Source: a virus (Duplodnaviria > Heunggongvirae > Uroviricota > Caudoviricetes). From it: DNA of 17,018 bases. Location: the IMG/VR virus record IMGVR_UViG_2606217117_000010; one strand, 5' to 3'. Below the pieces are notes generated by a model. It was not told the DNA's origin and did no database searches. It worked only from the letters and a program-made list of their open reading frames with translations. The position numbers were made by a program, and so were the translations under genes. The stretch's first letter is position 1, and each line of letters starts with the position of its first letter. Below are positions 1 to 16,149 of the stretch, in pieces.

Positions 1-257
1 CTGCGGCGCAGTTCACGATTTTCACGCTCCAGCTCTTTCAGACGCTGACGTTCAGCGGTGGTGAGCCCTCCATCACCGCCCCCGGTATCCCGCTCATGCT
101 GGCGAACCCAGACACGCAGAGTCTCCGGCGTACAGCCAATCTTTGGAGCAATGGAACAAATTGTCGCCCATTGTGAGTCATATTCGCCCTGACTTTCCAG
201 AACCATACGGACTGCCCGTTGACGGACTTCAGGGGAAAAACGAGTATTTTTAGTCAT
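1..257 (-). CDS. IS3-family transposase OrfA (IS629-like), 3'-partial in window
   Basis: Minus-strand ATG at 257-255. Translation [85 protein letters not shown] is an HTH plus leucine-zipper OrfA typical of IS3 family and matches my recollection of IS629 OrfA. The ORF runs off the window start. Confidence 0.85.
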
Positions 258-311
258 CCTGTTTACCTCTTTCTCAGGAAGTTTAGTCTCCAGGATTCCC
301 GGGGCGGTTCA
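1..311 (-). mobile_element. IS3-family insertion sequence (IS629/IS1203-like), partial: terminal inverted repeat plus 5' part of orfA; element continues past the window start
   Basis: Reverse complement of 281-311 reads TGAACCGCCCCGGGAATCCTGGAGACTAAAC, a TG-initiated IS3-family terminal inverted repeat, which I recall as the IS629 left end. It is followed by an orfA start with GAGG RBS. A near-identical terminus (TGAACCGCCCCGGGTTTCCTGGAGAG) occurs at 16150. Confidence 0.85.
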
Positions 312-474
312 CTTTGTGGTAATAGGCCAGTCAACCAGCAGGATGCGTGTAAGCGAATTTGCGGAGCTATTAGAGCTTATACAGGCATTCGGTACAGAGC
401 GTGGCGTTAAGTGGTCAGACGAAGCGCGACTGGCTCTCGAATGGAAAGCGCGATGGGGAGATCGGGCTGCATGA
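312..474 (+). pseudogene. ninB: ninB (NinB/Orf-family recombination protein) 3' fragment, 5' part removed by the IS insertion
   Basis: Frame starting at 313 reads [53 protein letters not shown] then stop at 472-474. This matches the C-terminus of lambda NinB as I recall it. The reading frame begins abruptly at the IS boundary (311/312) with no start codon. Confidence 0.75.
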
Positions 475-998
475 CTATCAAATCAAATACGCCAGCACAC
501 GACAAGGACTGCTGGCAAACGCCGCTTTGGCTTTTTGATGCACTGGATATTGAGTTTGGATTCTGGCTGGATTCGGCAGCGAGCGACAAAAATGCTCTGT
601 GCGCTCACTGGCTAACTGAGGACGACGACGCGCTCAATTCTGAGTGGGTAAGCCACGGTGCAATCTGGAATAACCCACCGTACAGCAATATCAGGCCGTG
701 GGTGGAAAAAGCCGCTGAGCAGTGTATACAACAGCGACAGACGGTAGTGATGCTTGTGCCAGAGGATATGTCTGTCGGATGGTTCAGCAAGGCTCTGGAG
801 AGTGTTGACGAAGTTCGTATTATCACTGATGGACGGATTAATTTTATCGAACCATCGACAGGGCTGGAGAAGAATGGAAACAGCAAAGGCTCCATGCTGC
901 TGATTTGGCGACCGTTCATCAGTCCTCGACGGATGTTTACTACCGTATCCAAAGCGGCATTGATGGCGATCGGGCAGGGCGTCAGGAGGGCTGCATGA
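471..998 (+). CDS. phage DNA N6-adenine methyltransferase (phage Dam family, PF05869-like)
   Basis: Translation [31 protein letters not shown]...WNNPPYSN... carries the N-terminal CWQTP motif and the NPPY catalytic motif IV of N6-adenine methyltransferases. ATG 471 overlaps the ninB stop (ATGA), and the stop overlaps the ninE ATG. In-frame alternative starts at 411 (GTG), 441 and 453 would overlap ninB and are less likely. Confidence 0.8.
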
Positions 999-1171
999 GA
1001 CGACAGCGACGAAGCATCACCGACATAATCTGCGAAAACTGCAAATACCTTCCAACGAAATGCTCCAGAAATAAACGCAAGCTAATCCCAAAAGAATCTG
1101 ACGTAAAAACCTTCAATTACACAGCCCACCTGTGGGATATCCGGTGGCTAAGATATCGTGCGAGGAAATGA
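995..1171 (+). CDS. ninE: NinE protein
   Basis: 58 aa [58 protein letters not shown] matches lambda/DLP12 NinE as I recall it. RBS AGGAGG at 984-989. The ORF-track start at 905 is an upstream extension overlapping the methyltransferase. Confidence 0.75.
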
Positions 1172-1173
1172 CA

Positions 1174-1515
1174 ATGGATTATTCACAGTTAAGTGATTTT
1201 GAAATTAACAGAATGGTAGGAGACATAATTTTTAAAGGCCTTTGGGCAAGTAAACCGGAAACATCAGGGAATAACACCAACAAATGGTATTACGGAAATG
1301 CTGATACAACTTTTGAGCCATTAAATCATTTGCCTGACTACTGCAATGATCCGAGCGCTTCATGGCCGATTATTGAGAAATACAGGATTTCTATCTTAGA
1401 CCAGTTAACTGAATGGTGTGTGGATGCAAAAGGCGTAAGCCCAATATTTGATACCAGACCTCTCCGCGCCGCCATGATTGTCTTTCTCCTGATGCAGGAG
1501 GCCAATAATGCTTAG
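1174..1515 (+). CDS. nin-region hypothetical protein (about 113 aa); possible NinX/DUF-type phage protein
   Basis: Uninterrupted ORF in the expected nin-region slot between ninE and the ninF-like ORF. GAGGA RBS at 1162-1166 and ATG at 1174, with an alternative ATG at 1168. The stop overlaps the next start. No motif recognised. Confidence 0.55.
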
Positions 1516-1702
1516 CCCATCTCAATCCCTTCAATACCTGAAAGAAAGCATAGAGCGGGCTTCAATGTGCACAGAGTGGATTCTATCTAGGTTTAGCGCA
1601 TACAGAAGATTGCCGGTAAAGGGCATGCCAAGCAAGTCGATGCTGCATATGCAAAAGAATGCGCGCTGGAAGGTATGGCGAGAACACAGGTTATGTGGCT
1701 AA
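1508..1702 (+). CDS. ninF: NinF-like small protein (N-terminus NinF-like, remainder divergent)
   Basis: The N-terminal [18 protein letters not shown] resembles lambda NinF ([18 protein letters not shown]...), but the remainder does not show the cysteine-rich NinF pattern I remember. Position immediately upstream of rusA. Confidence 0.4.
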
Positions 1703-1721
1703 AAGAGGGGGTTATTAAGGC

Positions 1722-2084
1722 GTGAATACCTACAGCATCACATTACCCTGGCCTCCGAGCAATAATCGCTATTACCGCCATAATCGCGGGCGCACGCACG
1801 TCAGCGCAGAGGGGCAGGCATACCGCGATAACGTCGCCCGAATCATTAAAAACGCAATGCTGGATATCGGCCTGGCTATGCCTGTGAAAATCCGCATTGA
1901 GTGCCACATGCCGGATCGCCGTCGCCGTGACCTGGATAATCTGCAAAAAGCCGCTTTTGACGCACTCACTAAAGCAGGTTTCTGGCTGGATGATGCTCAG
2001 GTCGTTGATTACCGCGTTGTGAAGATGCCTGTTACCAAAGGTGGGAGGCTGGAACTGACCATCACCGAAATGGGGAATGAATGA
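1722..2084 (+). CDS. rusA: crossover junction endodeoxyribonuclease RusA (Holliday junction resolvase)
   Basis: 120 aa [47 protein letters not shown]...[31 protein letters not shown] matches E. coli DLP12 RusA as I recall it. GTG start with upstream GAGGGGG RBS. Confidence 0.9.
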
Positions 2085-2221
2085 TGTTTGAGTTTAATAT
2101 GGCAGAACTTCTTCGCCACCGCTGGGGGCGTCTGCGCTTATATCGTTTCCCCGGTTCTGTTTTGACCGATTACCGAATACTGAAGAATTACGCCAAAACC
2201 CTGACAGGAACAGGAGTATGA
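2081..2221 (+). CDS. ylcG: YlcG-like small phage protein (46 aa)
   Basis: Below the ORF-track threshold. ATG at 2081 overlaps the rusA stop (ATGA). Translation [46 protein letters not shown] matches DLP12 YlcG as I recall it and occupies the same rusA-ylcG-Q position. Confidence 0.5.
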
Positions 2222-2306
2222 AGTCAGAGATAACAATCAACTAATACTGTTTTGTTGATTTTTGCTTGTAATTGGCGTTCTGGTCTGATTTTTGTGGAGT
2301 AAGTTG

Positions 2307-2690
2307 ATGCGTGATATTCAGATGGTTCTTGAGCGTTGGGGTGCGTGGGCGGCTAATAATCATGAAGATGTGACCTGGTCGTCCATTGCCGCCGGTTTTA
2401 AGGGATTAATTCCTTCAAAAGTAAAATCTCGCCCGCAATGTTGTGACGATGACGCGATGATCATTTGCGGGTGCATGGCCCGTCTGAAAAAGAACAACAG
2501 CGATTTACACGATTTATTAGTAGATTATTATGTATGTGGTATGACATTCATGTCACTGGCAAGTAAGCATTGCTGCTCGGATGGTTATATCGGGAAAAGG
2601 TTACAGAAGGCTGAGGGCATAATTGAAGGGATGTTAATGGCATTAGATATCCGGTTAGATATGGATATCGTTGCTAATAATTCTAATTGA
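2307..2690 (+). CDS. quuD: late-gene antiterminator Q (phage 82 / DLP12 QuuD type)
   Basis: 127 aa [62 protein letters not shown]... is cysteine-rich (putative Zn site) and matches 82-type Q/QuuD as I recall it. GGAG RBS at 2296-2299. The ORF-track TTG at 2292 is an upstream extension. Confidence 0.85.
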
Positions 2691-2827
2691 TATGCAATTG
2701 TTTACTAAAAGTTATTAAAAATGGGGCGTGGAAACGCCCCCAAAATAAAGGGTAATATATAACAGAAGGTTTATATAGTAAGAAGCAAGGTAGTGCTTCT
2801 AAAGGAAGTGGCTTGAGGGCTCCACTT
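2691..2827 (+). promoter_or_regulatory. possible Q-proximal late promoter / qut region (location uncertain; alternative site at 4160-4205)
   Basis: Inference from lambdoid architecture, where PR' and qut lie directly downstream of Q and upstream of a terminator. An intrinsic terminator lies at 2828-2868, but I could not identify a convincing -35/-10 pair here. Confidence 0.25.
2711..2740 (-). terminator. rho-independent terminator of the porin gene (minus strand)
   Basis: Hairpin GGGGCG-TGGAAA-CGCCCC at 2723-2740. On the minus strand it is followed by ATTTTTAATAAC (reverse complement of 2711-2722). Confidence 0.6.
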
Positions 2828-2878
2828 ATATGTTGCGGAGGCAAAGCCTCCCGCAACATATCTTTTTCGTAAGTCAGA
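2741..2878 (-). ncRNA. ipeX: porin 3'-UTR with strong internal hairpin; candidate IpeX-like regulatory RNA
   Basis: Untranslated stretch between the porin stop (2879) and its terminator, containing the 14-bp-stem hairpin at 2828-2861. An sRNA (IpeX) has been described in the equivalent nmpC 3' region of DLP12 and phage PA-2, as I recall. Sequence identity to IpeX was not verified. Confidence 0.3.
2828..2868 (+). terminator. rho-independent terminator on + strand downstream of Q (tR'-like, or terminator of early rightward transcription)
   Basis: Stem ATATGTTGCGGAGG (2828-2841), loop CAAAG, stem CCTCCCGCAACATAT (2847-2861) with a 1-nt bulge, followed by CTTTTTCG. Confidence 0.6.
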
Positions 2879-3961
2879 TTAGAACTGATAAACCAGACCT
2901 ACAGCGACGATGTCGTCGGTATCAATACCAGCTGTTTTGGTAAACTTACTATCGTCAATTAAGTTGATTTTGTAATCAACAAAAGTAGACATGTTTTTAT
3001 TAAAGTAGTAAGTAGCACCGACATCGACATACTTGACTAAGTCTCGGTCACCATGAACACCAAGGTCTTTACCTTTTGACTGAAGGTAAGCAACAGATGG
3101 GCGCAGACCGAAGTCAAACTGATATTGTGCTACTGCTTCAAAGTTTTGTGCTTTGTTTGCAATATGGTTATTACCAAAAACGGTCATATTCTGAGTTTCA
3201 GAATATGTGGTAGCCAGATAGATATTGTTCGCATCATATTTCAGGCCTGCAGCCCATACTTCCGCATTTTTGCCGGAGGCATTGAATTTGCTCTTACCAT
3301 AGGCGACCTGACCGTCAGTGCGATCTGATTTAGCATAGGTTGCACCCACGCCGAATCCTTCATACTCATAAGTAGTGGAGAAACCGAAACCATCACCATT
3401 GGCTTCAGTTACGTCAGTGCGGTCATTTTTACCCTGATACTGAGCAGCAAAGTTCAGGCCATCGACCAGACCAAAGAAGTCGTTGTTACGATAAGTTGCA
3501 ACACCAGTAGTGCGACCAGTCATGAACACATCTGTTTGGGTCCAGGTATCACCACCGAATTCTGGCAGAACGTCAGTCCACGCACCGATGTCGTATGCTA
3601 CACCGTAGTTACGGCCGTAATCGATGGAGCCGTAATCACCAAATTTCAGGCCTGCAAATGCAAGACGGGTTTTGTCTTTGGAAGAACCTTGAGATTCAGC
3701 ACGGTTGCCTTTGAATTCATATTCCCACTGACCGAAACCAGTCAGTTGATCGTTGATTTGGGTTTCACCTTTGAAGCCAAGACGGGCATAAGTAGTATCA
3801 CCATCATCTGCATCATTAGAGGAGAAGTAGTGCTTGGCATTAACTTTCCCGTATAGATCCAGCTTGTTACTGTCTTTATTATAAATTTCAGCTGCCTGAG
3901 CAGACATCGCCATCAGTACTGATGCAGCTACAGCAGAAATTGCCACTGTTAATTTTTTCAT
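2879..3961 (-). CDS. nmpC: outer membrane porin, OmpC/PhoE general bacterial porin family (prophage NmpC / Lc type)
   Basis: 360 aa from ATG at 3961-3959. Signal peptide [23 protein letters not shown] followed by [16 protein letters not shown], and C-terminal ...VAVGLVYQF ending in Phe: hallmark porin features. Located between Q and the holin as nmpC is in DLP12. The ORF-track start at 4021 is an upstream extension. Confidence 0.9.
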
Positions 3962-4159
3962 TGTACGCCCTTTTTTTGAACTATTATTAAAAAATGATGT
4001 CACTGCGCGATAAATATTCATCTAATCAATGTGATTATTTCAAGATGTAAGTTTTAGTTTCTCATTTAATTTGTGAAGTAGATCTCTATTTTTATCTGAA
4101 CCTTTTCTATCTAATCCTATTCATGGCTCTTGTCTGAACAAAAATAAATCTATTAGCTA

Positions 4160-4205
4160 ATTTATATTAATGGCACTTATTTATAAGTGCTCTATAATTC
4201 TTTAG
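4160..4205 (+). promoter_or_regulatory. candidate sigma70 promoter (possible late promoter PR' driving a short terminated leader RNA)
   Basis: -35-like ATGGCA (4170-4175), 17-bp spacer, perfect -10 TATAAT (4193-4198). It lies about 190 nt upstream of the intrinsic terminator at 4388-4420, analogous to lambda PR'-tR'. The region is AT-rich, so a chance match is possible. Confidence 0.3.
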
Positions 4206-4387
4206 CTTAATTTAAACAAACTAAAAATAACATCGGAAATTATTAACTGATTATTTGTTGAAGTTTTCTTATGTATTTGTGGTGGTGTTTTGAACACTCG
4301 GTGGCATTCTCACAAATATCATTTAGTAGTTTACGTACGTAAAAAATTGGTTATGCTGTTAAGAGTGGTTACTTCGTCACACAGCTT

Positions 4388-4420
4388 AAACCCGCCGTCG
4401 AGCGGGTTTTTCCATTTTTT
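4388..4420 (+). terminator. rho-independent terminator on + strand, 130 bp upstream of the holin gene (tR'-like candidate)
   Basis: Stem AAACCCGC (4388-4395), loop CGTCGA, stem GCGGGTTT (4402-4409), followed by TTCCATTTTTT. Confidence 0.55.
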
Positions 4421-4549
4421 GAGTCTCGATATTAGCTGATAACCCAATACCTGAGTTATTCACTGACTCCGAATCTGTTACGTTTCTGCCTTTATTGCGA
4501 TACGTAATATCCCCTTAATTTACACCCGCTTTGTCTGCGAGGTGGGGTT

Positions 4550-4765
4550 ATGAAATCCATGGATAAGTTAACAACGGGTGTCGCCTATGGCACCTCAGCA
4601 GGTAGTGCCGGTTACTGGTTTTTACCGCTGCTCGATAAAGTCACGCCCTCACAGTGGGCAGCAATAGGTGTGCTGGGTAGCCTGGTATTTGGCCTGCTGA
4701 CGTACCTGACAAACCTTTATTTCAAGATTAAAGAAGATAAGCGCAAGGCTGCGAGAGGTGAATAA
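4550..4765 (+). CDS. essD: class II holin / pinholin (phage 21 S21 type) with dual-start motif
   Basis: 71 aa [71 protein letters not shown] has two TMDs and a basic C-terminus. Met1-Lys-Ser-Met4 is the antiholin/holin dual start. Matches S21 as I recall it. Confidence 0.9.
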
Positions 4766-5262
4766 TGCCTCCATCATTACGAAAAGCCGTTGCTGCTGCT
4801 ATTGGTGGCGGAGCAATTGCTATAGCATCAGTGTTAATCACTGGCCCAAGTGGTAACGATGGTCTGGAAGGTGTCAGCTACATACCATACAAAGATATTG
4901 TTGGTGTATGGACTGTATGTCACGGGCATACAGGAAAAGACATCATGCTCGGTAAAACGTATACCAAAGCAGAATGCAAAGCCCTCCTGAATAAAGACCT
5001 TGCCACGGTCGCCAGACAAATTAACCCGTACATCAAAGTCGATATACCGGAAACAATGCGCGGCGCTCTTTACTCATTCGTTTACAACGTGGGTGCTGGC
5101 AATTTCAGAACATCGACGCTTCTTCGCAAAATAAACCAGGGCGATATCAAAGGCGCATGTGATCAGCTACGTCGCTGGACATATGCTGGCGGTAAGCAAT
5201 GGAAAGGTCTCATGACTCGTCGTGAGATTGAGCGTGAAATCTGTTTGTGGGGTCAGCAATGA
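4765..5262 (+). CDS. rrrD: SAR endolysin (T4-lysozyme-like, GH24; phage 21 R21 type)
   Basis: N-terminal signal-anchor-release domain [20 protein letters not shown], followed by a catalytic E...D...T triad region ([24 protein letters not shown]). GAGAGG RBS. Start overlaps the holin stop by 1 nt. Confidence 0.9.
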
Positions 5263-5723
5263 ACAGAGTAACCGCGATTATCTCCGCTCTGGTTATCTGC
5301 ATCATCGTCTGCCTGTCATGGGCTGTTAATCATTACCGTGATAACGCCATTACCTACAAAGCCCAGCGCGACAAAAATGCCAGAGAACTGAAGCTGGCGA
5401 ACGCGGCAATTACTGACATGCAGATGCGTCAGCGTGATGTTGCTGCGCTCGATGCAAAATACACGAAGGAGTTAGCTGATGCGAAAGCTGAAAATGATGC
5501 TCTGCGTGATGATGTTGCCGCTGGTCGTCGTCGGTTGCACATCAAAGCAGTCTGTCAGTCAGTGCGTGAAGCCACCACCGCCTCCGGCGTGGATAATGCA
5601 GCCTCCCCCCGACTGGCAGACACCGCTGAACGGGATTATTTCACCCTCCGGGAACGACTGGTAATGATGCAGGCCCAACTTGAAGGTGCTCAGCAATACA
5701 TAACCGAGCAGTGTTTAAAGTAA
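5259..5723 (+). CDS. rzpD: i-spanin Rz
   Basis: [61 protein letters not shown]... has an N-terminal TMD and coiled coil, and is near-identical to lambda Rz as I recall it. ATG 5259 overlaps the endolysin stop (ATGA). Confidence 0.85.
5479..5664 (+). CDS. rzoD: o-spanin Rz1 (outer-membrane lipoprotein), embedded in the +1 frame of Rz
   Basis: [24 protein letters not shown]... carries a lipobox (VVGC), followed by the proline-rich [15 protein letters not shown]. Entirely nested inside Rz. Confidence 0.85.
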
Positions 5724-5860
5724 AATCTTAACTACAATATGATTCATTTTGATGATTGTTTCATAAGGAACAGTGAAGTAAGATCTAAGAGGAGTTAAAT
5801 TTTATACAGTATAATCATAATATTGCAGCAAGGTGGTTATAATTGAAAGAATATTTAGAT

Positions 5861-7318
5861 ATGAATACATCTCATGTAAGAGTTGTTACTCATATGTGTG
5901 GGTTCCTGGTTTGGCTCTATAGTCTTTCAATGTTGCCACCAATGGTTGTAGCATTGTTTTATAAAGAAAAAAGCCTGTTCGTTTTCTTTATAACTTTCGT
6001 TATATTTTTTTGCATTGGTGGCGGAGCGTGGTATACAACTAAGAAATCTGGCATTCAATTACGTACCCGTGATGGGTTTATTATAATTGTAATGTTTTGG
6101 ATTTTGTTTTCTGTTATTAGTGCATTCCCTTTATGGATTGACTCAGAACTTAATTTAACGTTCATTGATGCTCTGTTTGAAGGGGTTTCTGGAATAACAA
6201 CAACAGGAGCAACTGTAATTGATGATGTTAGTTCATTACCTCGGGCATATTTGTACTATCGGTCACAGTTAAATTTTATAGGTGGTTTAGGAGTTATTGT
6301 TCTGGCGGTTGCTGTATTGCCATTATTGGGTATTGGTGGTGCAAAGCTTTATCAGTCAGAAATGCCGGGGCCATTTAAGGATGACAAACTCACTCCCCGC
6401 CTGGCCGATACGTCACGGACACTGTGGATAACTTATTCTTTATTAGGTATTGCTTGTATTGTCTGTTATAGACTTGCAGGAATGTCTTTGTTTGATGCTA
6501 TTTGTCACGGGATTTCCACAGTTTCGCTTGGTGGTTTCTCAACTCATAGCGAGAGTATCGGATATTTTAATAACTATTTGGTTGAGCTGGTGGCTGGTTC
6601 TTTTTCCCTGCTATCGGCTTTCAACTTCACTCTTTGGTATATTGTTATTAGCAGAAAAACGATAAAACCTTTAATCAGAGATATTGAACTTCGTTTCTTT
6701 CTGTTAATAGCCTTAGGGATGATCATTGTTACCTCTTTCCAGGTCTGGCATATAGGTATGTATGACTTGCATGGAAGTTTTATTCATTCGTTTTTTCTTG
6801 CCAGCTCCATGCTCACTGATAATGGTTTAGCTACGCAGGATTATGCAAACTGGCCCACGCACACGATAGTGTTTTTGCTGTTGTCAAGTTTCTTTGGGGG
6901 ATGTATCGGTTCAACCTGTGGTGGAATTAAGTCACTTCGATTTCTTATACTTTTCAAACAAAGCAAACACGAGATAAATCAACTTTCTCATCCCAGAGCG
7001 TTGTTAAGTGTAAATGTAGGAGGGAAGATAGTTACAGATCGTGTAATGAGGTCTGTATGGAGTTTCTTTTTTCTTTATACTCTCTTCACGGTGTTTTTTA
7101 TACTGGTGTTAAATGGTATGGGATATGATTTTCTTACATCATTTGCAACAGTGGCTGCATGTATTAATAATATGGGATTAGGTTTTGGGGCTACTGCATC
7201 GTCATTCGGAGTGCTTAATGACATTGCAAAATATTTAATGTGCATAGCTATGATTCTTGGTCGCCTTGAAATTTATCCTGTTATTATATTGTTTTCAGGT
7301 TTTTTTTGGCGCTCCTAA
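5861..7318 (+). CDS. trkG: Trk-system potassium uptake protein TrkG (TrkH/KtrB superfamily)
   Basis: 485 aa polytopic membrane protein with repeated selectivity-filter-like glycine motifs (GITTTGATV, GIGGAK, SLGGFS, GSTCGGIK). Matches the Rac-prophage TrkG of E. coli as I recall it. AT-rich gene downstream of Rz/Rz1, as in Rac. The ORF-track TTG at 5843 is an upstream extension. Confidence 0.9.
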   Translation: MNTSHVRVVTHMCGFLVWLYSLSMLPPMVVALFYKEKSLFVFFITFVIFFCIGGGAWYTTKKSGIQLRTRDGFIIIVMFWILFSVISAFPLWIDSELNLTFIDALFEGVSGITTTGATVIDDVSSLPRAYLYYRSQLNFIGGLGVIVLAVAVLPLLGIGGAKLYQSEMPGPFKDDKLTPRLADTSRTLWITYSLLGIACIVCYRLAGMSLFDAICHGISTVSLGGFSTHSESIGYFNNYLVELVAGSFSLLSAFNFTLWYIVISRKTIKPLIRDIELRFFLLIALGMIIVTSFQVWHIGMYDLHGSFIHSFFLASSMLTDNGLATQDYANWPTHTIVFLLLSSFFGGCIGSTCGGIKSLRFLILFKQSKHEINQLSHPRALLSVNVGGKIVTDRVMRSVWSFFFLYTLFTVFFILVLNGMGYDFLTSFATVAACINNMGLGFGATASSFGVLNDIAKYLMCIAMILGRLEIYPVIILFSGFFWRS

Positions 7319-7404
7319 TATATGGCTGATTTATAATTGTGAGTTTAATATTATGTTGACTCACTCATTGATCCAATACCTAACTTTACCAGCAACACCT
7401 CCGC

Positions 7405-7439
7405 CCCCAGTAGCACTGGCTGCTGGGGTGCGTTTTATT
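7405..7439 (+). terminator. rho-independent terminator downstream of trkG
   Basis: Stem CCCCAGTAGC (7405-7414), loop ACTG, stem GCTGCTGGGG (7419-7428, one G-U pair), followed by TGCGTTTTATT. Confidence 0.55.
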
Positions 7440-7455
7440 CATAAAGCAAGGCTGT

Positions 7456-8250
7456 ATGAGCGAGAAATTAAAGATAGTCTATCGCCCATTACAAGAATTG
7501 TCACCGTATGCGCACAATGCCAGGACGCACAGTACTGAGCAGGTGGCACAACTGGTAGAAAGTATTAAGCAATTCGGCTGGACTAATCCGGTGCTGATTG
7601 ACGAAAAGGGCAAAATTATTGCGGGTCACGGTCGTGTTATGGCGGCTGAAATGCTCAAAATGGATTCTGTTCCGGTCATTGTTCTGTCTGGCCTGACGGA
7701 TGAGCAGAAAAAGGCGTACCGCCTGGCAGATAATCGCCTGCCGATGAATGCTGGCTGGGATGAAGATCTGTTGCGGATGGAGCTGTCGGACCTAATCAAT
7801 GCTGATTTTGATGTCTCCCTGACAGGCTTCATCCCGACAGAAATTGATGAACTGTTGACGGATGTTTTGCCCGGTACAGGAAATGAGGAGGAGCCGTATA
7901 CGACGAAAATTGATACGCCTGTTTATGAGCCGTCGGGCGGTAAACCGGATATCAGTGAACTGTACGACGATACGAAAACTCAGGAGCTGATCAGCCGGAT
8001 ACGTTCGGCGTCCCTTGATCCTGATATTGAGAAATTCCTCCTGTGTGCGGCAGAACGTCACACAGTGTTTAATTTCAGCAGAATTGCGGACTATTACGCT
8101 CATGCCCCCGCTGAAATTCAGTGCCTTTTCGAGGAGTCGGCGCTGGTGATCATTGATTATCAGCAGGCTATTGAAAATGGATTTGTCCGAATGACGCAGC
8201 GCATGGTGGAGATCATGCATGGCGGGGAGGAGGAGGAGGAATATGCGTGA
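7456..8250 (+). CDS. ParB/sulfiredoxin-like nuclease-domain protein (ParB N-terminal domain plus uncharacterised C-terminal domain with poly-Glu tail)
   Basis: N-terminal IVYRPLQELSPYAHNARTH...NPVLIDEKGKIIAGHGRVMAAEM resembles the ParB/Srx fold, with a G-x-G-R box in place of the ParB GERRxRA patch. The C-terminus GGEEEEEYA is encoded by GGAGGAGGAGGAGGAA, which doubles as the RBS of the next gene. A Rac-prophage ynaK-like position is possible but unverified. Confidence 0.75.
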   Translation: MSEKLKIVYRPLQELSPYAHNARTHSTEQVAQLVESIKQFGWTNPVLIDEKGKIIAGHGRVMAAEMLKMDSVPVIVLSGLTDEQKKAYRLADNRLPMNAGWDEDLLRMELSDLINADFDVSLTGFIPTEIDELLTDVLPGTGNEEEPYTTKIDTPVYEPSGGKPDISELYDDTKTQELISRIRSASLDPDIEKFLLCAAERHTVFNFSRIADYYAHAPAEIQCLFEESALVIIDYQQAIENGFVRMTQRMVEIMHGGEEEEEYA

Positions 8251-9175
8251 TGATTTTTGCGCCTTTATTCTGACTCACGGGCGACCGGACAAAGTTCTGA
8301 CTTACCGGACGTTGCGTCGTGCTGGCTATACCGGGAAAATTTTTATCGTTGTTGATGATGAAGATAAGACACGGCATCAGTACATGGCTGAATTTGGTGA
8401 ACAGGTGCTGGTATTTTCCAAAGCCGATATTGCCAGTCGTTTTGACGAAGCCGATAATTTTGGTGATCGCCGCTCAATTTTTTACGCCCGTAATGCCTGT
8501 TTCGACCTGGCAAAACTGGTCGGGTGTAAATACTTCATTCAGCTCGATGATGATTATCACGAGTTCCAGTTTCGGGTGGATCGCAACTATGACCAGGCCT
8601 ATTTCCCGATAAGGAAACTGGATGCGATCCTTTCTGAAATGCTGGCGTATTACGAATCAATACCCGCGCTTTCCATCGCTATGTCGCAGGGCGGGGATTT
8701 TCTTGGTGACAATGGCGGCCATGCTTCGTGGGTGAAACGCAAGGCAATGAACAGCTTTATCTGTTCGGTTGATCGACCGTTCTCATTCATGGGGCGCATT
8801 AACGAGGATGTGAATACGTACACGAATCTCGGTCGCTGTGGTGAATTGTTTATGACGATCGGTGCTGTCCAGTTAGGGCAGAAACAGACTCAGAAAAACA
8901 GCGGCGGAATGACCGAGCTGTATCTGGATTCCGGAACCTACGTTAAAAGTTTTTACTCCGTCATGTATTCGCCGTCGTGCGTAAAAATCTCACTGATGGG
9001 TGCCAGCCATAAACGCATTCACCATCAGGTCACCTGGAACAACGCTGCAGTAAAAATCCTTCACGAAAAATACAGGAAGAAGACACCCTGCATATCAATG
9101 GGGGTGACAAATGATTCCGTATTCGAAAGTCGAGTCTCTGGCAGCGTGCCGGATGACTGCACAACAAATCGCTGA
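8243..9175 (+). CDS. uncharacterised protein with N-terminal GT-A (family-2-like) glycosyltransferase fold signature
   Basis: The coding region is well supported: long ORF, strong AGGAGG RBS, 8-nt overlap with the upstream stop. Alternative ATG at 8219 gives MAGRRRRN-. The function is a motif-level guess: AFILTHGRPD...IFIVVDDEDK...ARNACFDLAKLVGCKYFIQLDDDYHEF resembles the GT2 pattern (beta-strand with DD, then ARN...G.Y...LDxDD/DxD). Confidence 0.6.
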   Translation: MRDDFCAFILTHGRPDKVLTYRTLRRAGYTGKIFIVVDDEDKTRHQYMAEFGEQVLVFSKADIASRFDEADNFGDRRSIFYARNACFDLAKLVGCKYFIQLDDDYHEFQFRVDRNYDQAYFPIRKLDAILSEMLAYYESIPALSIAMSQGGDFLGDNGGHASWVKRKAMNSFICSVDRPFSFMGRINEDVNTYTNLGRCGELFMTIGAVQLGQKQTQKNSGGMTELYLDSGTYVKSFYSVMYSPSCVKISLMGASHKRIHHQVTWNNAAVKILHEKYRKKTPCISMGVTNDSVFESRVSGSVPDDCTTNR

Positions 9176-9362
9176 CGTTCTGGATGTTGATCTGAACCGA
9201 CTGAAAGAAAATCGGGAAGCAATGACAGATTTTTATGCGGCCATCCGTAAGGGCAGAGCGAAAGGTGAAGCCGAGTTACGAGCGGCATTGTTTAAGCTTG
9301 CCAGAAAAGGGGATGCCTTTGCTCTGCGCGAACTACTCAGGGTGGATAAAAATCAGGACTAA
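9111..9362 (+). CDS. small hypothetical protein, possibly DNA-binding (packaging-associated?)
   Basis: 83 aa ORF with GGGGTG RBS, ending 3 nt before the terminase small subunit start. Contains the HTH-like segment MTAQQIADVLDVDLNRL. It overlaps the 3' end of the upstream gene by 65 nt, and the alternative start at 9153 still overlaps by 23 nt. Confidence 0.45.
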   Translation: MIPYSKVESLAACRMTAQQIADVLDVDLNRLKENREAMTDFYAAIRKGRAKGEAELRAALFKLARKGDAFALRELLRVDKNQD

Positions 9363-9365
9363 CTG

Positions 9366-10460
9366 ATGAGCAGACCGGACTGGGGGGCGTTGCAGCAGGA
9401 GTATATTGCTGAATACACCCGCTCCGGTATATCTCCGGTGGCATGGTGTGAAGCAAGGGGACTGAACTACGCAACAGCCCGTCGTTACATCAAAAAAACT
9501 CCGAAAAATGCGCAGAAAGAAATGCGCAAAACTGCGCAAAAAAGTGCGCGAAAAAAAACTGCGCAGACTGCGCAAAGGCAGAACGGAAAATCTCAGAAAA
9601 AAAAGGCTGTATCCGATGCACTCCTGATTGAGGGGGACACGGAAGAAATTTCGTTCTGCCCCGATGAATTCGGTATTTCTGACCAGCAGGCAAAATTCGC
9701 CATGTTGGTTGCTCAGGGGAAAAAGCCGACAGAGGCATACCGACTGGCTGGTTATGAGGGGCAAGGTGCGACAGCTAACAGCAACGCCAGCCGTATGCTT
9801 AGAAATGCCAGGGTTTATCGTGCTATCAGCTACTTCCGCAATCAGTACCAGAAACGCTATACCGCAGACCTGGATTTACTGGTGAGCCAGTTGATGGCCA
9901 TTGTCCAGGCCGACCCCAATCAGTTGGCACAATTTCGCCGTGTTAACTGCCGTTATTGCTGGGGCGAGAATCATCTCTACCAGTGGCGTGATATTGCAGA
10001 ATTCGATAAGGCTGCGGCACAGGCCTCCAGAGATGGTAAACCCGAGCCGGAATATGGAGGCCTCGGCTTTGTTGATAACGCCATACCCAATCCTGATTGC
10101 CCGAAGTGCTGCGGTGAGGGAACAGGACAGCTTTATATGGCTGATACCACACTGCTTGATGGGGATGCGCGGCAATTATATGCAGGGTCAAAGCTCGGAA
10201 AATACGGTGTTGAGATCCTGCTGGAGGATAAGGCTGCCGCCCGGCGTGAATTGTTGCGTTTGCTTTCTGCTGGCGGGGCATTATGTGCAGATAAGCGGCT
10301 ACAGGAACTGGAAATTGAACGGCGCAGAATAGAGAACCAGAAGCTGCGCAAAGAGATCGAAACGGTGGAGGATAATGAACATCCCCAGCCTGTGGCGATC
10401 AATATTAATGTGGTTGATGCCAGATTAAGGAGTGATGAAGATGATCTCTCCGACGCTTAA
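9366..10460 (+). CDS. terminase small subunit (Terminase_2-like) with N-terminal HTH, lysine-rich linker and a CxxC...CxxC zinc-ribbon insertion
   Basis: Segment FGISDQQAKFAMLVAQGKKPTEAYRLAGYEGQGATANSNASRMLRNARV matches the terminase small-subunit pattern (LT.KQ..F...Y...NAT.A...AGYS...A...ASRLL.N). Lies immediately upstream of the large subunit. Cysteine pairs NCRYCWGE and DCPKCCGE. Confidence 0.7.
   Translation: MSRPDWGALQQEYIAEYTRSGISPVAWCEARGLNYATARRYIKKTPKNAQKEMRKTAQKSARKKTAQTAQRQNGKSQKKKAVSDALLIEGDTEEISFCPDEFGISDQQAKFAMLVAQGKKPTEAYRLAGYEGQGATANSNASRMLRNARVYRAISYFRNQYQKRYTADLDLLVSQLMAIVQADPNQLAQFRRVNCRYCWGENHLYQWRDIAEFDKAAAQASRDGKPEPEYGGLGFVDNAIPNPDCPKCCGEGTGQLYMADTTLLDGDARQLYAGSKLGKYGVEILLEDKAAARRELLRLLSAGGALCADKRLQELEIERRRIENQKLRKEIETVEDNEHPQPVAININVVDARLRSDEDDLSDA
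9490..9620 (+). repeat. degenerate tandem repeats (about 12 nt, TGCGCA-A-rich) with A7-A8 homopolymer runs, inside the terminase small subunit gene
   Basis: AATGCGCAGAAAG / AAATGCGCAAAA / CTGCGCAAAAAA / GTGCGCGAAAAAAAA / CTGCGCAGACTGCGCAAAGG, encoding KNAQKEMRKTAQKSARKKTAQTAQRQ. Confidence 0.5.
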
Positions 10461-11742
10461 TGTGCCTCAGGCGCGATTTCTTTCAATGCCCCATAAATTT
10501 AAAGCCTATATTGCTGGTTTTGGCTCGGGCAAAACATGGGTTGGGTGTGGCGGCATATGCAAGGGGATTTGGGAGCATCCAGGTATAAATCAGGGATATT
10601 TTGCGCCAACGTATCCCCAAATTCGCGATATTTTTTACCCTACAGTGGAAGAAGTTGCTGCTGACTGGGGATTGAACGTAAAAATTAATGAGGGAAATAA
10701 AGAGGTTCACTTTTATTACGGACGCCAGTATCGGGGAACCACTATCTGCAGATCGATGGAGAAGCCACAAACGATCGTCGGTTTCAAAATTGGTAATGCG
10801 CTGGTGGATGAACTGGACATTTTGCCGAAGGAAAAAGCCAGAACGGCGTGGCGCAAGATAATTGCGCGTATGCGTTATAAGATTGATGGACTTCGCAACG
10901 GTATTGACGTTACAACCACGCCGGAAGGATTCAAATTTGTCTACGAGCAGTTTGTTAAAGCCGTGCGTGAAAAAACAGAGCTGGCCTCACTGTATGGTCT
11001 GGTGCAGGCATCTACTTTCGATAATGAAAAGAACCTGCCAGCAGATTACATTCCTTCACTTCTTGAATCATACCCTCCAGAGCTGATTAAAGCCTATCTT
11101 CTAGGACGGTTTACTAACCTGACAAGTGGTACTGTTTACCATCAGTTTGACCGGAAACTGAATAATTGCGAAGAAGTGGAGCAGCCAGGGGAGCCGATTT
11201 ATATTGGGATGGATTTTAACGTTGGAAAGATGGCGGGAATCGTCCATGTGCTGCGTTTGGGGCTTCCATGTGCGGTAACTGAAATCATCAATGCCTACGA
11301 TACGCCGGATATGATCCGCCTCATTAAAGAACGCTTCTGGCTGTATGACGGGCATGATTACCGGAAAGTGAGGGAGATTTATATTTATCCAGATGCTTCC
11401 GGAGATTCCAGAAAATCAAGTAACGCAAGTACGACGGATATAGCCCAGCTTAAGCAGGCAGGTTTTAACGTTGTGGTGAACAGCTCGACCCCGCCAGTAA
11501 AAGATCGCGTTAACTCAATGAATGCAATGTTCTGCAATGCCAATGGTGAGCGTCGCTATAAAGTTAATGTGAAGCGTTGTCCGGTATATGCCGAATCTCT
11601 GGAGCAACAGGTCTGGGATGATAAGGGGGAGCCTGATAAAAAATCTGGCAATGATCACCCGAATGATGCCGGAGGTTATTTCATCGTTAAGCAATTCCCT
11701 ATTGTCAAACCGACCGGAAGAGTCACATCACTTCGGATTTAA
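10441..11742 (+). CDS. terminase large subunit (ATPase plus nuclease)
   Basis: Walker A AGFGSGKT near the N-terminus, and C-terminal nuclease acidic motifs (YPDASGDS, GNDHPNDAGG). AAGGAG RBS at 10426-10431 favours ATG 10441; the ORF-track start at 10432 (GTG) is also possible. Overlaps the end of the small-subunit gene. Confidence 0.9.
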   Translation: MISPTLNVPQARFLSMPHKFKAYIAGFGSGKTWVGCGGICKGIWEHPGINQGYFAPTYPQIRDIFYPTVEEVAADWGLNVKINEGNKEVHFYYGRQYRGTTICRSMEKPQTIVGFKIGNALVDELDILPKEKARTAWRKIIARMRYKIDGLRNGIDVTTTPEGFKFVYEQFVKAVREKTELASLYGLVQASTFDNEKNLPADYIPSLLESYPPELIKAYLLGRFTNLTSGTVYHQFDRKLNNCEEVEQPGEPIYIGMDFNVGKMAGIVHVLRLGLPCAVTEIINAYDTPDMIRLIKERFWLYDGHDYRKVREIYIYPDASGDSRKSSNASTTDIAQLKQAGFNVVVNSSTPPVKDRVNSMNAMFCNANGERRYKVNVKRCPVYAESLEQQVWDDKGEPDKKSGNDHPNDAGGYFIVKQFPIVKPTGRVTSLRI

Positions 11743-11744
11743 TT

Positions 11745-13151
11745 ATGGCTGATATATCAACACCCAACCTCGACTATAACGATATGCTGGAGGCGTGGGA
11801 TATTAACGACGCATTGATGGGCGGTACGCTTGAAATGCGCAGGCAGGGGGAAAATTATCTCCCCAAATGGCCTAATGAAGATGAAGACGCTTATAAAAAA
11901 CGCCTGTCTGTGGCTACGTTACTTCCTGTGTATGAAGAAAGCATCAAACAAAATATTGGGCGCATATTTGCAGAGCCGACAGTATTGAGTGAGGAAACGC
12001 CGGAAAAAATCAGGGAATATGCAGAAAATATCGACATGGAGGGGAGCCGACTGGATGTGTGGGCGCAGCAATTTTTCAGTCTCGCATTTCAGTATGGTGT
12101 GGCACATGCGCTGGTGGACTATCCACGAACGGATATGAACGAGATTCGGACAAAAGCCGATGAAAACGCGGCCGGTGGTCGCCCGTACGTTACGATGCTG
12201 AATCCACGCCAGGTTATTGGATGGAAATCGAAAGTTGAAAAAGGGAAAGTTGTTCTCACTGATTTGCGTATAAAAGAGGTCATCATTATTGATGGTGATG
12301 ATTTCGGGCAGAAGAAGGTGGAGCAGATCCGCCATATTATGCCCCGTCGAGTTGAAATTTATCGACGTAGCGAAGGCACTAATGGCGAATCTGTCTGGAC
12401 GCTTCATGAGTCATGGAATACCAGCCGTGATGATATTCCTCTGGTAACACTGTACACGAAGAAAACAGGATTTATGCGTGGTACACCGCCATTGCTTAAT
12501 CTTGGCTTGCTGAATATCAAGCACTGGCAAAGCCAGAGCGAGCAGGACAATATTCTTCATGTTGCCCGCGTTCCATTGCTGGTGGCCTACGGGCTGGACA
12601 GGAATGAAGAACTGACGGTTGGTGCATCCACCGCTACGATTTTTGAGGACAGAACAAAAAATGGCCTCGAATATGTTGAACATAGTGGCGCAGCGATAGA
12701 ATCTGGCGAAACATCACTTGAGAAGCTGGAAAATCAGATGCGTCATGCCGGCGCTAAACTTCTGCGTGCTGAAAATACATCCACCAAATCTGTTGATCAG
12801 ACTAATGAAGAGCGAATGCAGGAAAACTCGCCGCTTTATACAATGGCGAACTCCCTCGAAGATGCCCTCGATAATATTCTCCAGATAATGGCGGAATGGA
12901 TCGGAGAGAGTTGCGGTGGCAATGTGGATGTGCGCACTGAACTGGATGTATCTGCCCAGGTGTTTGACTCATCCTCCGCGCTGGCTGTTCAGTCATTGCG
13001 TCAGGGCGGTGATATACGTCAGATTGATGCGGTTCGGGTGTTGCAGGCGTTGAAATTTATCGATCAGGATTCCCGTCCAGAGGAAGTGATCGATGAATTA
13101 AAAAATCAGAGTGTAATGCTGATGGAAATCAATGATGCAAACCGTGAATGA
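11745..13151 (+). CDS. portal protein (putative)
   Basis: 468 aa ORF starting 3 nt after the large-terminase stop and followed by a Mu-F-like head morphogenesis gene: the canonical portal position and size. No motif confirmation. Confidence 0.7.
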   Translation: MADISTPNLDYNDMLEAWDINDALMGGTLEMRRQGENYLPKWPNEDEDAYKKRLSVATLLPVYEESIKQNIGRIFAEPTVLSEETPEKIREYAENIDMEGSRLDVWAQQFFSLAFQYGVAHALVDYPRTDMNEIRTKADENAAGGRPYVTMLNPRQVIGWKSKVEKGKVVLTDLRIKEVIIIDGDDFGQKKVEQIRHIMPRRVEIYRRSEGTNGESVWTLHESWNTSRDDIPLVTLYTKKTGFMRGTPPLLNLGLLNIKHWQSQSEQDNILHVARVPLLVAYGLDRNEELTVGASTATIFEDRTKNGLEYVEHSGAAIESGETSLEKLENQMRHAGAKLLRAENTSTKSVDQTNEERMQENSPLYTMANSLEDALDNILQIMAEWIGESCGGNVDVRTELDVSAQVFDSSSALAVQSLRQGGDIRQIDAVRVLQALKFIDQDSRPEEVIDELKNQSVMLMEINDANRE

Positions 13152-14247
13152 ACGGCTGCGTGATGAATCAATTGCTCATGCAGTCTGGATATCCCGCTAT
13201 AGCACTGGCGTGGCTGCCAGAATGGTGAAAATACTGAATGACAGCGATGCGGAACTTACTGCTCGCCTGCTGATAGCACTGGACAGCCTCGATCCAGGTA
13301 GTTTTACCGTTAAGCGCCTGGAGTCACTTCTGGCGAGCGTCAGAGAGGTTAACCGCACTGCTATTAACAGCATGTTTACCAGTCTCTCCGGAGAGCTGAA
13401 CGAGCTGGCAATTTATGAGGCTGGTTATCAGTTAAGTCTGTTTGATTCTATGCTACCTGATTTTGTTGCTGATGTTCACCCTCTGGTTGGTATCTCTCCT
13501 GATGCACTTTATGCCGCTGCAATGGCGCGACCATTCCAGGGACGACTGCTCAGTGAGTGGGCCTCAGATCTTGAGGCGGATCGGCTCAGACGCATAACAA
13601 ATACAGTGCGTCAGGGTTTTTTGCTGGGGGATACCAATGAGCAGATCGCAAGAAAAATTCGGGGACATGTCAGTAAGGGATTTCAGGATGGTGCATTGCA
13701 GATGAGCCGGGCTAATGCGGCCAGCATTGCAAAAACAGCGGTTGGACATCTTGCTGCTACTGCCCGTGAGAGTTTTGCCAGCGCGAATAATGATTTGATT
13801 AAGGGTAAGCAATGGTTATCAACGCTTGATAATCGTACTACGCCACAATGTCGAATCAGGGATCGCCTCAAATATACGCTGAATAATAAACCTGTAGGTC
13901 ACAGCGTGCCTTATTTGCAGGGGCCGGGAAAAATTCATTTCTGCTGCCGCTCAACGGAAACGTTCATTCTGAAATCAGCGAAGGAACTGGGTATTGATGT
14001 TCGCGATATTTCCCCGGCTGAGCGGGCCAGCATGGATGGCGTGATGGCCGGAGATACAACCTACAGGGAATGGTTTTTGCGTCAGCCTTACACCAGACAA
14101 AAACAGATTGTGGGGGAAAGCCGAGCAAAGCTGATTCGGGATGGTGGTATGTCGCCAGATGAATTTTACACCGATAAAGGCGAATGGCTGACGCTGAAGC
14201 AGCTCCGTGAGCGTGATGCACAGGTATTCAGAAAAGCAGGGATTTAA
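13132..14247 (+). CDS. phage head morphogenesis protein, SPP1 gp7 / Mu F family (minor head protein)
   Basis: Contains the family-typical segment GKQWLSTLDNRTTPQCRIRDRLKY (D-x-R-T-x-x-C). Overlaps the portal gene end by 20 nt. Confidence 0.8.
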   Translation: MMQTVNERLRDESIAHAVWISRYSTGVAARMVKILNDSDAELTARLLIALDSLDPGSFTVKRLESLLASVREVNRTAINSMFTSLSGELNELAIYEAGYQLSLFDSMLPDFVADVHPLVGISPDALYAAAMARPFQGRLLSEWASDLEADRLRRITNTVRQGFLLGDTNEQIARKIRGHVSKGFQDGALQMSRANAASIAKTAVGHLAATARESFASANNDLIKGKQWLSTLDNRTTPQCRIRDRLKYTLNNKPVGHSVPYLQGPGKIHFCCRSTETFILKSAKELGIDVRDISPAERASMDGVMAGDTTYREWFLRQPYTRQKQIVGESRAKLIRDGGMSPDEFYTDKGEWLTLKQLRERDAQVFRKAGI

Positions 14248-14266
14248 ATAAATCATTTATTACAAC

Positions 14267-14294
14267 AGGCTACCTTCGGGTGGCCTTTTTTATT
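14267..14294 (+). terminator. rho-independent terminator with UUCG tetraloop between the head morphogenesis and scaffold genes
   Basis: AGGCTACC-TTCG-GGTGGCCT (8-bp stem including one G-U pair) followed by TTTTTATT, beginning 20 nt after the stop at 14247. Confidence 0.6.
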
Positions 14295-14351
14295 GCTGCG
14301 ATCCGGATGGTGAGCAGCGTAACTGTCGGAAGACTTAAACCAGGTACTAAT

Positions 14352-15116
14352 ATGAAACTGAAAACGGTCGAGATTAACGGAAAACAATACGCAGAAATTG
14401 ATACTGCTGGCCTGCCAGTTTATGTGCACGACGATGGTAAAGAAATTGGCTTCGATGCACCGCTGGCGACAAAAAAAATTACAGAGCTTAATGGCGAGGC
14501 AAAAAATCATCGCCTGGCTAAAGAAGCTGCAGAGGAAAAACTGGCTAAGTTTGCCGCTATCGAAGACCCGAAGAAGGCGATCGAGGCACTGGAAATGCTG
14601 TCAAAAATCGACCAGAAAAAGCTGCTCGATGCGGGACAGGTTGACCAGGTTAAGGCAGAAATTACGAAAAATTTTCAGCAGCAATTAGATGAAGAAAAGC
14701 AACGCTCTCAGATGCTGGAGAAGCAGCTTTACGATTCTATGATTGGCGGTAGTTTTGCGGGTTCAAAATATATTGCCGATAAAATTGCGATCCCGGCAGA
14801 TTTATTACAAGCCCGCTTCGGGCAGGCATTCAAAGTGGAAGAAGGGAGGATCGTTGCTTATGACGCTTCCGGCAACAAAATTTATTCCCGCGCGAAGCCT
14901 GGCGAACTGGCGCAGTTTGATGAGGCGCTGGAGTTCCTTGTCGAAAATTACCCTCAGAAAGACTACATCCTGAAAGCCAGTGGCAACAATGGCGGCGGCT
15001 CCCGTCCGACACAGCATGATATTGGTCAGAAAACGATGAAACGCTCTGCTTTTGATGCACTGGATGTTGCAGGTAAGCAAAACGCATTGAAAGACGGTAT
15101 CACAATCGTTGATTAA
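14352..15116 (+). CDS. putative scaffolding protein
   Basis: 254 aa, highly charged and alanine/lysine/glutamate-rich with predicted coiled-coil character. Positioned between the head morphogenesis and capsid genes. The ORF-track start at 14280 lies inside the terminator hairpin, so ATG 14352 is preferred. Confidence 0.55.
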   Translation: MKLKTVEINGKQYAEIDTAGLPVYVHDDGKEIGFDAPLATKKITELNGEAKNHRLAKEAAEEKLAKFAAIEDPKKAIEALEMLSKIDQKKLLDAGQVDQVKAEITKNFQQQLDEEKQRSQMLEKQLYDSMIGGSFAGSKYIADKIAIPADLLQARFGQAFKVEEGRIVAYDASGNKIYSRAKPGELAQFDEALEFLVENYPQKDYILKASGNNGGGSRPTQHDIGQKTMKRSAFDALDVAGKQNALKDGITIVD

Positions 15117-15214
15117 CACATTTGTCAGCTTCCGGATGGGAGCTGGTGTCAGGGCTGGATAGCTCATTACTCCATCTATTCACAATTACGCAAATTTTTA
15201 AGGAATATTTAATT

Positions 15215-16149
15215 ATGGCTGGAAATACCCTGACCGGGTTGATCCCGACTATTTATACCGCCCTGGATGTTGTATCCCGTGAGCAGGTAGGTTTTATCCC
15301 TGCGGTAGCAAAAAACGCAAAAGCTGACGCCGCAGCAAAAGATCAGACGGTAACCGCGCCAGTTGCGCCTGAGGCGAAAACCGAAGATATCGTACCGGGG
15401 CCGTCAGCTCCGAATACCGGTGATCAAAATATTGGCACTGTTGATGTAAAAATTACTAAATCCAAAATGGCACCGGTTAAATGGAATGGTGAAGAACAAC
15501 TGGCTCTTGGCCCTTCAGGGACTTACAACACCATTCTGGCTGATCAGTTCAAGCAGGCTTTTCGCGCCCTTGCAAACGAGGTTGAGGCTGATCTTGGTGC
15601 GTTGTATTTCGGTGCTTCCCGCGCCGTGGGAACCGCAGGGACAACGCCGTTTGGTGTTAAAGATGATCTTTCTGATGCTGCTCTGGCTCGTCAGGTTCTG
15701 GAGGATAACGGCGCACCGACAACCGATCTGCAGATGGTGCTTGGCTCCACTGCCATTGCTAATTTGCGCGGAAAACAGTCTGTATTGTTTAAAGTGAATG
15801 AATCCGGCACTGAACAGCTACTGCGTGAGGGCGTGTTGGGGCGTCTGGAGGGATTCAATATTCACAGTTCGGCAGGTGTGAAACGAGCGCCAAAGGTTGC
15901 TGCAACTGGTTATCTCGTGAATGGAGAGAAAAAAGAAGGCGATGTTCTTATTTCCATTGATACTGGTTCGGGGAGTATTTCTGCAGGTCAGATTGTTACG
16001 TTCGCTGGTGATCCGAATCAGTATGTTGTGGCAGCAGCGACCAGCAATCTGATTACTCTTGCAGCGCCCGGACTGCGTCAGGATCTGGCCGATGATACTG
16101 CCATCACAGTTGTTGGGGCCTTTACTGCAAATATGGCGTTTGATCGCAA
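15215..16149 (+). pseudogene. major capsid (coat) protein gene, 3' end interrupted by IS insertion
   Basis: ORF with AAGGA RBS and ATG 15215, directly after the scaffold gene. The reading frame runs into the IS terminus at 16150 and ends 13 codons later inside IS sequence (...MAFDRN|EPPRVSWRVFYL*). Capsid identity is by position and size only. Confidence 0.6.

Follow-up and report, generated by a model that had tools for sequence, protein, structure and literature searches.

The window analyzed here, the whole 17,018-bp stretch under study, opens with the end of an insertion sequence (IS) fused to the 3' part of the phage gene ninB, which raises the question of how the two came to be joined: by integration of the element into the gene, by a later deletion beside an IS copy, or by an error of assembly. 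The window is the complete draft contig JNQN01000069.1 of assembly GCA_000704145.1 (Escherichia coli 2-222-05_S3_C2/_C3). It starts 311 bases into one IS629 copy and ends 869 bases into another. The other flank of the left copy falls beyond the contig end, and of ninB the contig therefore shows the last third only. Our main reading, to which we assign a probability of roughly 0.93, is that IS629 integrated into ninB with its IRL end joined to nucleotide 279, leaving the gene dead. The features at the left end of the window are as follows (numbers beginning with L denote the loci fetched for comparison):

1 to 311, minus strand: partial IS629 copy comprising the leftmost 311 bp (IRL-proximal), with 100% identity to the corresponding end of complete 1,310-bp copies (L010, L014, and L022)
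1 to 257, minus strand: first 85 codons of transposase OrfA (ATG at 255 to 257; translation ...ELRR), running off the window start; Pfam HTH_Tnp_1, E = 9e-13, profile positions 1 to 72 of 75
284 to 311, minus strand: IRL, the terminal inverted repeat (inward reading, TGAACCGCCCCGGGAATCCTGGAGACTA), which ends at 311 with the canonical TG...CA, matching the inverted repeat of the other end (16150 to 16177) at 25 of 28 positions
312 to 315, no strand: target nucleotides abutting the IS (CTT or CTTT), the right-hand copy of a 3- to 4-bp duplication if the insertion is intact
312 to 474, plus strand: ninB remnant, comprising the last base of codon 93, codons 94 to 146, and the stop; 100% identical to nucleotides 279 to 441 of intact ninB (L002 and L016)

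The two IS pieces in the window, 1 to 311 and 16150 to 17018, were both 100% identical to one single 1,310-bp element (L010, L014, and L022). A full copy of this element is found in a sister genome locus (L022, 10936 to 12245, 1,310 bp), whereas both copies in the window are incomplete because the contig ends within them; both inverted repeats in the window (IRL and IRR) begin TGAACC. Compared with features annotated as "insertion sequence: IS3 family IS629" in Stx phages, the piece from 16150 to 17018 showed 99.9% identity, and a 100%-identical copy in LC-1302-2020 is described in RefSeq as "IS3 family transposase, programmed frameshift" with an AL1L pseudoknot. The near-identity, the length of ~1.3 kb with imperfect inverted repeats, and the combination of an OrfA helix-turn-helix domain with an OrfB rve domain are those of IS3/IS629; the frameshift region (IS ~312 to 441) falls beyond the window. 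Judged from its sequence, the element is IS629, which sharpens the "IS629-like" of an earlier note on this DNA. That note also had OrfA running away from the junction on the minus strand, and so it does, from 257 to 1 and out of the window (85 codons).

IS629, whose near-identical isoforms include IS1203, is inserted in lambdoid prophages of E. coli O157:H7 and its relatives, and the window has in common with these insertions the element, the prophage habitat, and gene truncation that often leaves no surviving duplication. The window differs from the O157 copies in its site (ninB nucleotides 278/279), which was found in 0 of 5,426 complete E. coli genomes, and in its host, a non-O157 draft isolate family (E. 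coli 2-222-05_S3). In O157, 62% of IS629 copies lie within prophages, the target-site duplication is 3 to 4 bp long but was seen at just 21 of 47 sites, and the target specificity of the element is stated as unknown; IS629 accumulates preferentially in prophages, driving prophage decay and small-scale diversification of E. coli genomes (PMC3271280).

The junction lies at positions 311/312 and reads ...CCCGGGGCGGTTCA/CTTTGTGGTAATAGG... (a slash marks the break), position 311 being the last base of the canonical IS terminus (reverse complement TGAACCGCCCCGGG...); the junction-spanning sequence is GGTTCA/CTTTGTGG. A megablast search of positions 1 to 1500 against the 5,426 complete E. coli genomes returned thousands of matches to the ninB region, all starting at 312, in keeping with the earlier claim that the reading frame breaks exactly at the IS terminus. 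The sole match covering the full 1,500-nucleotide query was rejected as a false join in which the IS sits in ninX and not in ninB. Alignment of positions 312 to 474 to intact ninB (references L002, 2723 to 3163, and L016, 9564 to 10004), which had been proposed as a check, was run and placed position 312 at ninB nucleotide 279, the third base of codon 93, with 100% identity downstream. Nucleotides 1 to 278, including the ATG, are missing from the remnant side and the IS end stands in their place; the disruption of ninB was thus rightly called.

Positions 313 to 471 translate as FVVIGQSTSRMRVSEF...GDRAA, i.e., 53 sense codons, and are followed by a stop at 472 to 474 that overlaps the ATG of the next gene at 471. 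The earlier statement that only 3' codons survive is true of this contig and may or may not extend to the genome; its number of 54 counts the stop. Similarly, the statement that no start codon is present holds for a native start but not for every possible one, as an in-frame GTG (316) and ATG (343) lie within the remnant; neither is native, and gene callers on other contigs sometimes use them. The remnant matched the NinB family (PF05772) with an E value of 1.2e-11 and 45 bits (cut-off, 23.8), at profile positions 97 to 131 of 131 only. It also matched residues 94 to 146 of lambda NinB/Orf (PDB 1pc6) at 52 of 53 positions, the exception being G107S, and the identification of the frame as ninB stands on both comparisons. 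The likeness to the lambda recombination mediator consists of these retained residues. In contrast, residues 1 to 93, about two thirds of the fold, are absent, so the remnant, which has neither a complete NinB domain nor a native start codon, is not a functional member of the family.

Promoter and terminator scans of window positions 1 to 700 found no promoter-like or terminator-like site, and an Rfam scan gave nothing relevant. Because only residues 94 to 146 of 146 are present on this side, with no native start and no promoter-like site, and because a complete IS would separate it from the early transcript, ninB is a dead gene fragment, inactivated. Positions 312 to 474 should be labeled a ninB pseudogene remnant and positions 1 to 311 a partial IS629.

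How this arrangement may have arisen can be read in part from related prophages. Window positions 312 to 5648 were 100% identical to an intact-ninB prophage in the sister genome OZ038772.1 (L016) and 99.98% identical to the prophages of L010, L012, and L014, and the ancestral state was thus an intact ninB. On the best explanation, ninB of a lambdoid prophage carried by strains of the E. coli 2-222-05_S3 type would have received an IS629 copy (IS3 family, 1,310 bp, copy-out/paste-in), with IRL becoming joined to ninB nucleotide 279. The lambda nin region is transcribed from the early rightward promoter, and a 1.3-kb IS upstream cuts the remnant off; here the complete IS would separate the ninB remnant from the early rightward phage transcript. 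The insertion is probably recent and strain specific. IS629 may be taking this prophage apart in several such events; 15.8 kb downstream, another copy with the same orientation cuts the capsid gene. NinB/Orf is a dispensable (accessory) recombination mediator of lambdoid phages. From what is established for lambda, we infer that the prophage, with its capsid gene also cut by IS629, is defective and that loss of ninB carries no expected cost to the host.

The earlier observation is confirmed and its interpretation supported. The feature is real and biologically ordinary, a case of routine prophage decay, and this type of event is already known: it is one more IS629 copy at a new position. No paper turned up in a literature search combining IS629 with ninB. 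The significance of the locus is mostly for annotation, with little beyond.

What became of the 5' half of ninB depends on what the other end of the left IS629 adjoins. If this is a simple insertion, the far side of the IS would read ...GGGAATGGCTT(T)/TGAACCGCCCCGGGTTTCC, with CTT or CTTT duplicated. If a deletion or rearrangement followed, the IRR end would border something else, such as O' GAGCGTAATG or sequence of int or ea8.5. Among the fetched loci, eight IS629 copies had both ends readable; four carried a 3-bp duplication and four did not, and the four without (L014, L010, L018, and L022) sit at deletion junctions. On the basis of these 4 of 8 copies, together with the published 21 of 47 (PMC3271280), we give roughly even odds that the 5' half of ninB is still beside the IS.

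The explanation that competes most closely is that O', P, ren, and ninB nucleotides 1 to 278 were removed by an IS-associated deletion or by IS-IS recombination, with the junction marking where it ended. We regard this as a toss-up. Two routes could lead there: IS629 may already have been present upstream, for example in O, or a new copy in ninB may have recombined with one upstream that shares its orientation. Either would leave no ninB 5' half next to the IS and no target duplication, and the frequency of copies without a duplication, in the fetched loci as in the literature, is in its favor. So is the genome LC-1302-2020 (L002/L010), in which a 100%-identical IS629 lies in the same orientation with its IRL 2,178 bp upstream inside O; the flanking prophage DNA is 99.98% identical, and the window equals L002 minus positions 823 to 3000. 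However, LC-1302-2020 is without the window's rare junction between the capsid gene and IS629 and thus belongs to a different lineage. The sister genome that does share the capsid junction, OZ038772.1, carries its O-adjacent IS629 in the opposite orientation, with IRR beside O' and ninB intact, and from that orientation a one-step adjacent deletion cannot yield an IRL end joined to the ninB remnant. On these two grounds, a one-step adjacent deletion from an O-gene IS629 was downgraded. To our knowledge, the copy-out/paste-in transposition of the IS3 family does not itself make adjacent deletions. The deletion route therefore still requires that IS629 first integrated into ninB, and it would follow on the integration that we favor instead of being a true alternative to it.

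Searches for both junctions bear on the same question. Exact 30- and 33-mers spanning the left junction were absent from the genome, metagenome, and IMG/VR contig collections; the left junction is private to this strain family and rests on its draft assemblies. The complementary junction, expressed as a gapped DNA pattern (ninB...AATGG, 0 to 8 bases, IS terminus), was found in none of the three contig collections. At the protein level, we looked up 13 exact sequences, i.e., 12 predicted products (duplications of 0 to 6, both IS ends, and two starts) and the intact 146-aa NinB as a control, in a collection of ~15 billion proteins that includes gene calls from the source assembly. For a 3-bp duplication, the expected product (NinB 1 to 93 plus FEPPRVSWRVFYL) was absent with either start. 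The product of a 4-bp duplication (NinB 1 to 94, stopped by the TGA of the IS terminus) was present, and 10 of 10 inspected places were contig-end partials from unrelated samples. In all, forms of 93, 94, and 100 residues were present; the 94- and 100-residue forms were contig-end partials of unrelated samples where inspected, and the 93-aa form carries "partial" source names. The missing 3-bp product leans weakly against an intact simple insertion and, to the same small degree, toward a deletion, because the absence of a protein depends on gene calling, contig ends, and N-terminal variants.

An artefact of draft assembly in repeat-rich prophage and IS DNA, affecting either the junction between IS629 and ninB or its placement in the contig, is very improbable. 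The suspicion has some basis: the window is a whole draft contig with IS629 at either end, and its left junction occurs in no other genome. Further, the window is a perfect hybrid of two prophages of OZ038772.1, so that an assembler could have mis-threaded a shared repeat. Positions 312 to 5648 correspond to the lambda-att prophage of that genome (100% identity) and positions 5215 to 17018 to its trkG prophage (99.99% identity), with the switch falling inside a 591-bp lysis-cassette stretch that is identical in both (5058 to 5648); SNPs of the lambda-att type lie just before it, at 4787 to 5057. However, the break coincides exactly with the last nucleotide of the IS, which is the outcome of transposition and is seen at every other copy, and a mis-join in the lysis cassette would alter the late genes after ninB and not produce an IS terminus fused to nucleotide 279. 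Two samples have the identical 17,018-bp contig on record. In addition, enterotoxigenic E. coli (ETEC) H10407 and ET745 show a collinear ninB-trkG-capsid order free of IS elements and aligning as one piece at 97% identity, which makes the gene order natural. In OZ038772.1, the lambda-att and trkG prophages are mutually inverted and ~1.27 Mb apart. These observations hint at either prophage-prophage recombination with a large inversion or mis-assembly as the source of the hybrid join. Finally, a circular or tandem contig with one IS at both ends was rejected, as the 311- and 869-nucleotide pieces do not overlap and the right-hand IS of the sister genome runs into tail-fiber DNA.

Integration of IS629 at this part of ninB has a close parallel in another genome. 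In GCA_965255975.1, an independent IS629 lies in ninB in the opposite orientation, 2 bp from the window break, with a 3-bp duplication (TTG). The insertion is split over contigs CBDGJG010000070.1 and CBDGJG010000079.1, one junction joining ninB nucleotides 1 to 283 to IRL (L060, 5880 to 6286) and the other joining IRR to ninB nucleotides 281 to 441 (L006, 1 to 288). A predicted chimeric product of 103 residues was found in the protein look-up and belongs to this opposite-orientation insertion (L060). The element and the gene are those of the window, and with both junctions recovered it is a simple insertion. It differs from the window in that IRL faces the 5' half of ninB and in that the phage background is different, which marks it as an independent event. 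Its 5' junction was also present in sample SRR31136351, in a different phage background and replication module. This clean, independent insertion nearby shows that the ninB site is a genuine IS629 target.

A looser parallel is found in a prophage of CFT073 (NC_004431.1, 1415867 to 1417080), where an IS629-type element in the spacer between ren and ninB adjoins ninB, as the IS of the window does. The nin module is also shared, with ninB, an N-6-adenine methyltransferase gene, ninE, ninX, rusA, quuD, and a porin gene in both. In contrast to the window, ninB of CFT073 is intact and undisrupted, the element being located upstream of it; this element has the opposite orientation and a GGT duplication. 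Among complete genomes, 36 carried such an IS end at most ~650 bp upstream of the 3' part of ninB.

Repeated use of one site was also seen in the O gene. At CAGGAG/CGTAATGTGG, IS629 occurs in both orientations with junctions 3 bp apart (L014, 7630 to 7700; L002, 790 to 860, and L010, 27010 to 28400). Here, IRR is joined to GAGCGTAAT in four genomes and IRL to CGTAAT in LC-1302-2020; neither arrangement has a duplication, and large deletions of the early region lie on the other side. In OZ038772.1 (L016, 4874 to 7136), the O-adjacent IS629 is itself interrupted by ~2.3 kb encoding a reverse transcriptase/maturase (Pfam RVT_1 and GIIM), a group II intron inside the IS.

Several IRL flanks share TGTGG, 3 to 5 nucleotides outside the IS end. 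It is possible, if doubtful, that ninB codons 93 to 95 (GGC TTT GTG G) form a preferred integration site of IS629, with at least two independent events within 5 bp and in opposite orientations. The sample behind this suggestion is small and was ascertained through ninB, and we treat it as a lead and not as a result. As such, recurrent IS629 at one ninB site offers a small, testable lead on target choice.

Dozens of unrelated draft contigs end at ninB nucleotides 279 to 287 (e.g., L039 to L048 and L061), coinciding with the IS629 target. Partial NinB proteins from such contig ends had 93, 94, and 95 residues on 45, 11, and 36 contigs, respectively, and no IS sequence was present in the inspected contigs with 94- and 100-residue NinB. 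This stretch has the look of a boundary in lambdoid nin regions, mosaic or repetitive, at which assemblies break.

The opposite end of the window carries the second IS629 copy, oriented like the left one:

15215 to 16149: P22-type major capsid gene, truncated by the right IS629; a chimeric ORF at 15215 to 16189 (324 aa) ends inside the inverted repeat
16150 to 17018, minus strand: right (IRR-proximal) 869 bp of the second IS629 copy, 100% identical to IS629 in L010, L014, and L022; Pfam rve, HTH_21, and rve_3 on the minus-strand OrfB

Searched for by exact match, the chimeric capsid ORF led to the source contig, which look-ups of the 52- and 43-aa remnant ORFs of ninB did not recover, and placed this junction also in the complete genome OZ038772.1 and in about 15 contigs. 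Apart from that complete sister genome, none of the contigs with the capsid junction was longer than 17,018 bp. In OZ038772.1, remnants of tail-fiber DNA follow the right-hand IS629 and no target duplication flanks it; a deletion between the capsid gene and the tail fiber is thereby indicated at the capsid-side junction. The 15.8-kb prophage remnant is thus bracketed by two direct IS629 copies, like a composite transposon, and we found no evidence that the bracketed remnant moves as a unit.

Between the two IS copies, the window carries two genes of host type as cargo. Downstream of the Q antiterminator gene there is an OmpC/NmpC-like porin gene (2879 to 3961, minus strand). The other gene, for the potassium transporter TrkG (5861 to 7318, plus strand), is flanked by the lysis cassette and the terminase genes, a placement that we take to be that of trkG in the Rac prophage. 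A short DUF1364/ybcO remnant (1636 to 1725) is located between ninX and rusA, and the equivalent position is annotated as a pseudogene in L001 and L002. Many genome matches to the window start exactly at 1636, which points to a mosaic boundary there.
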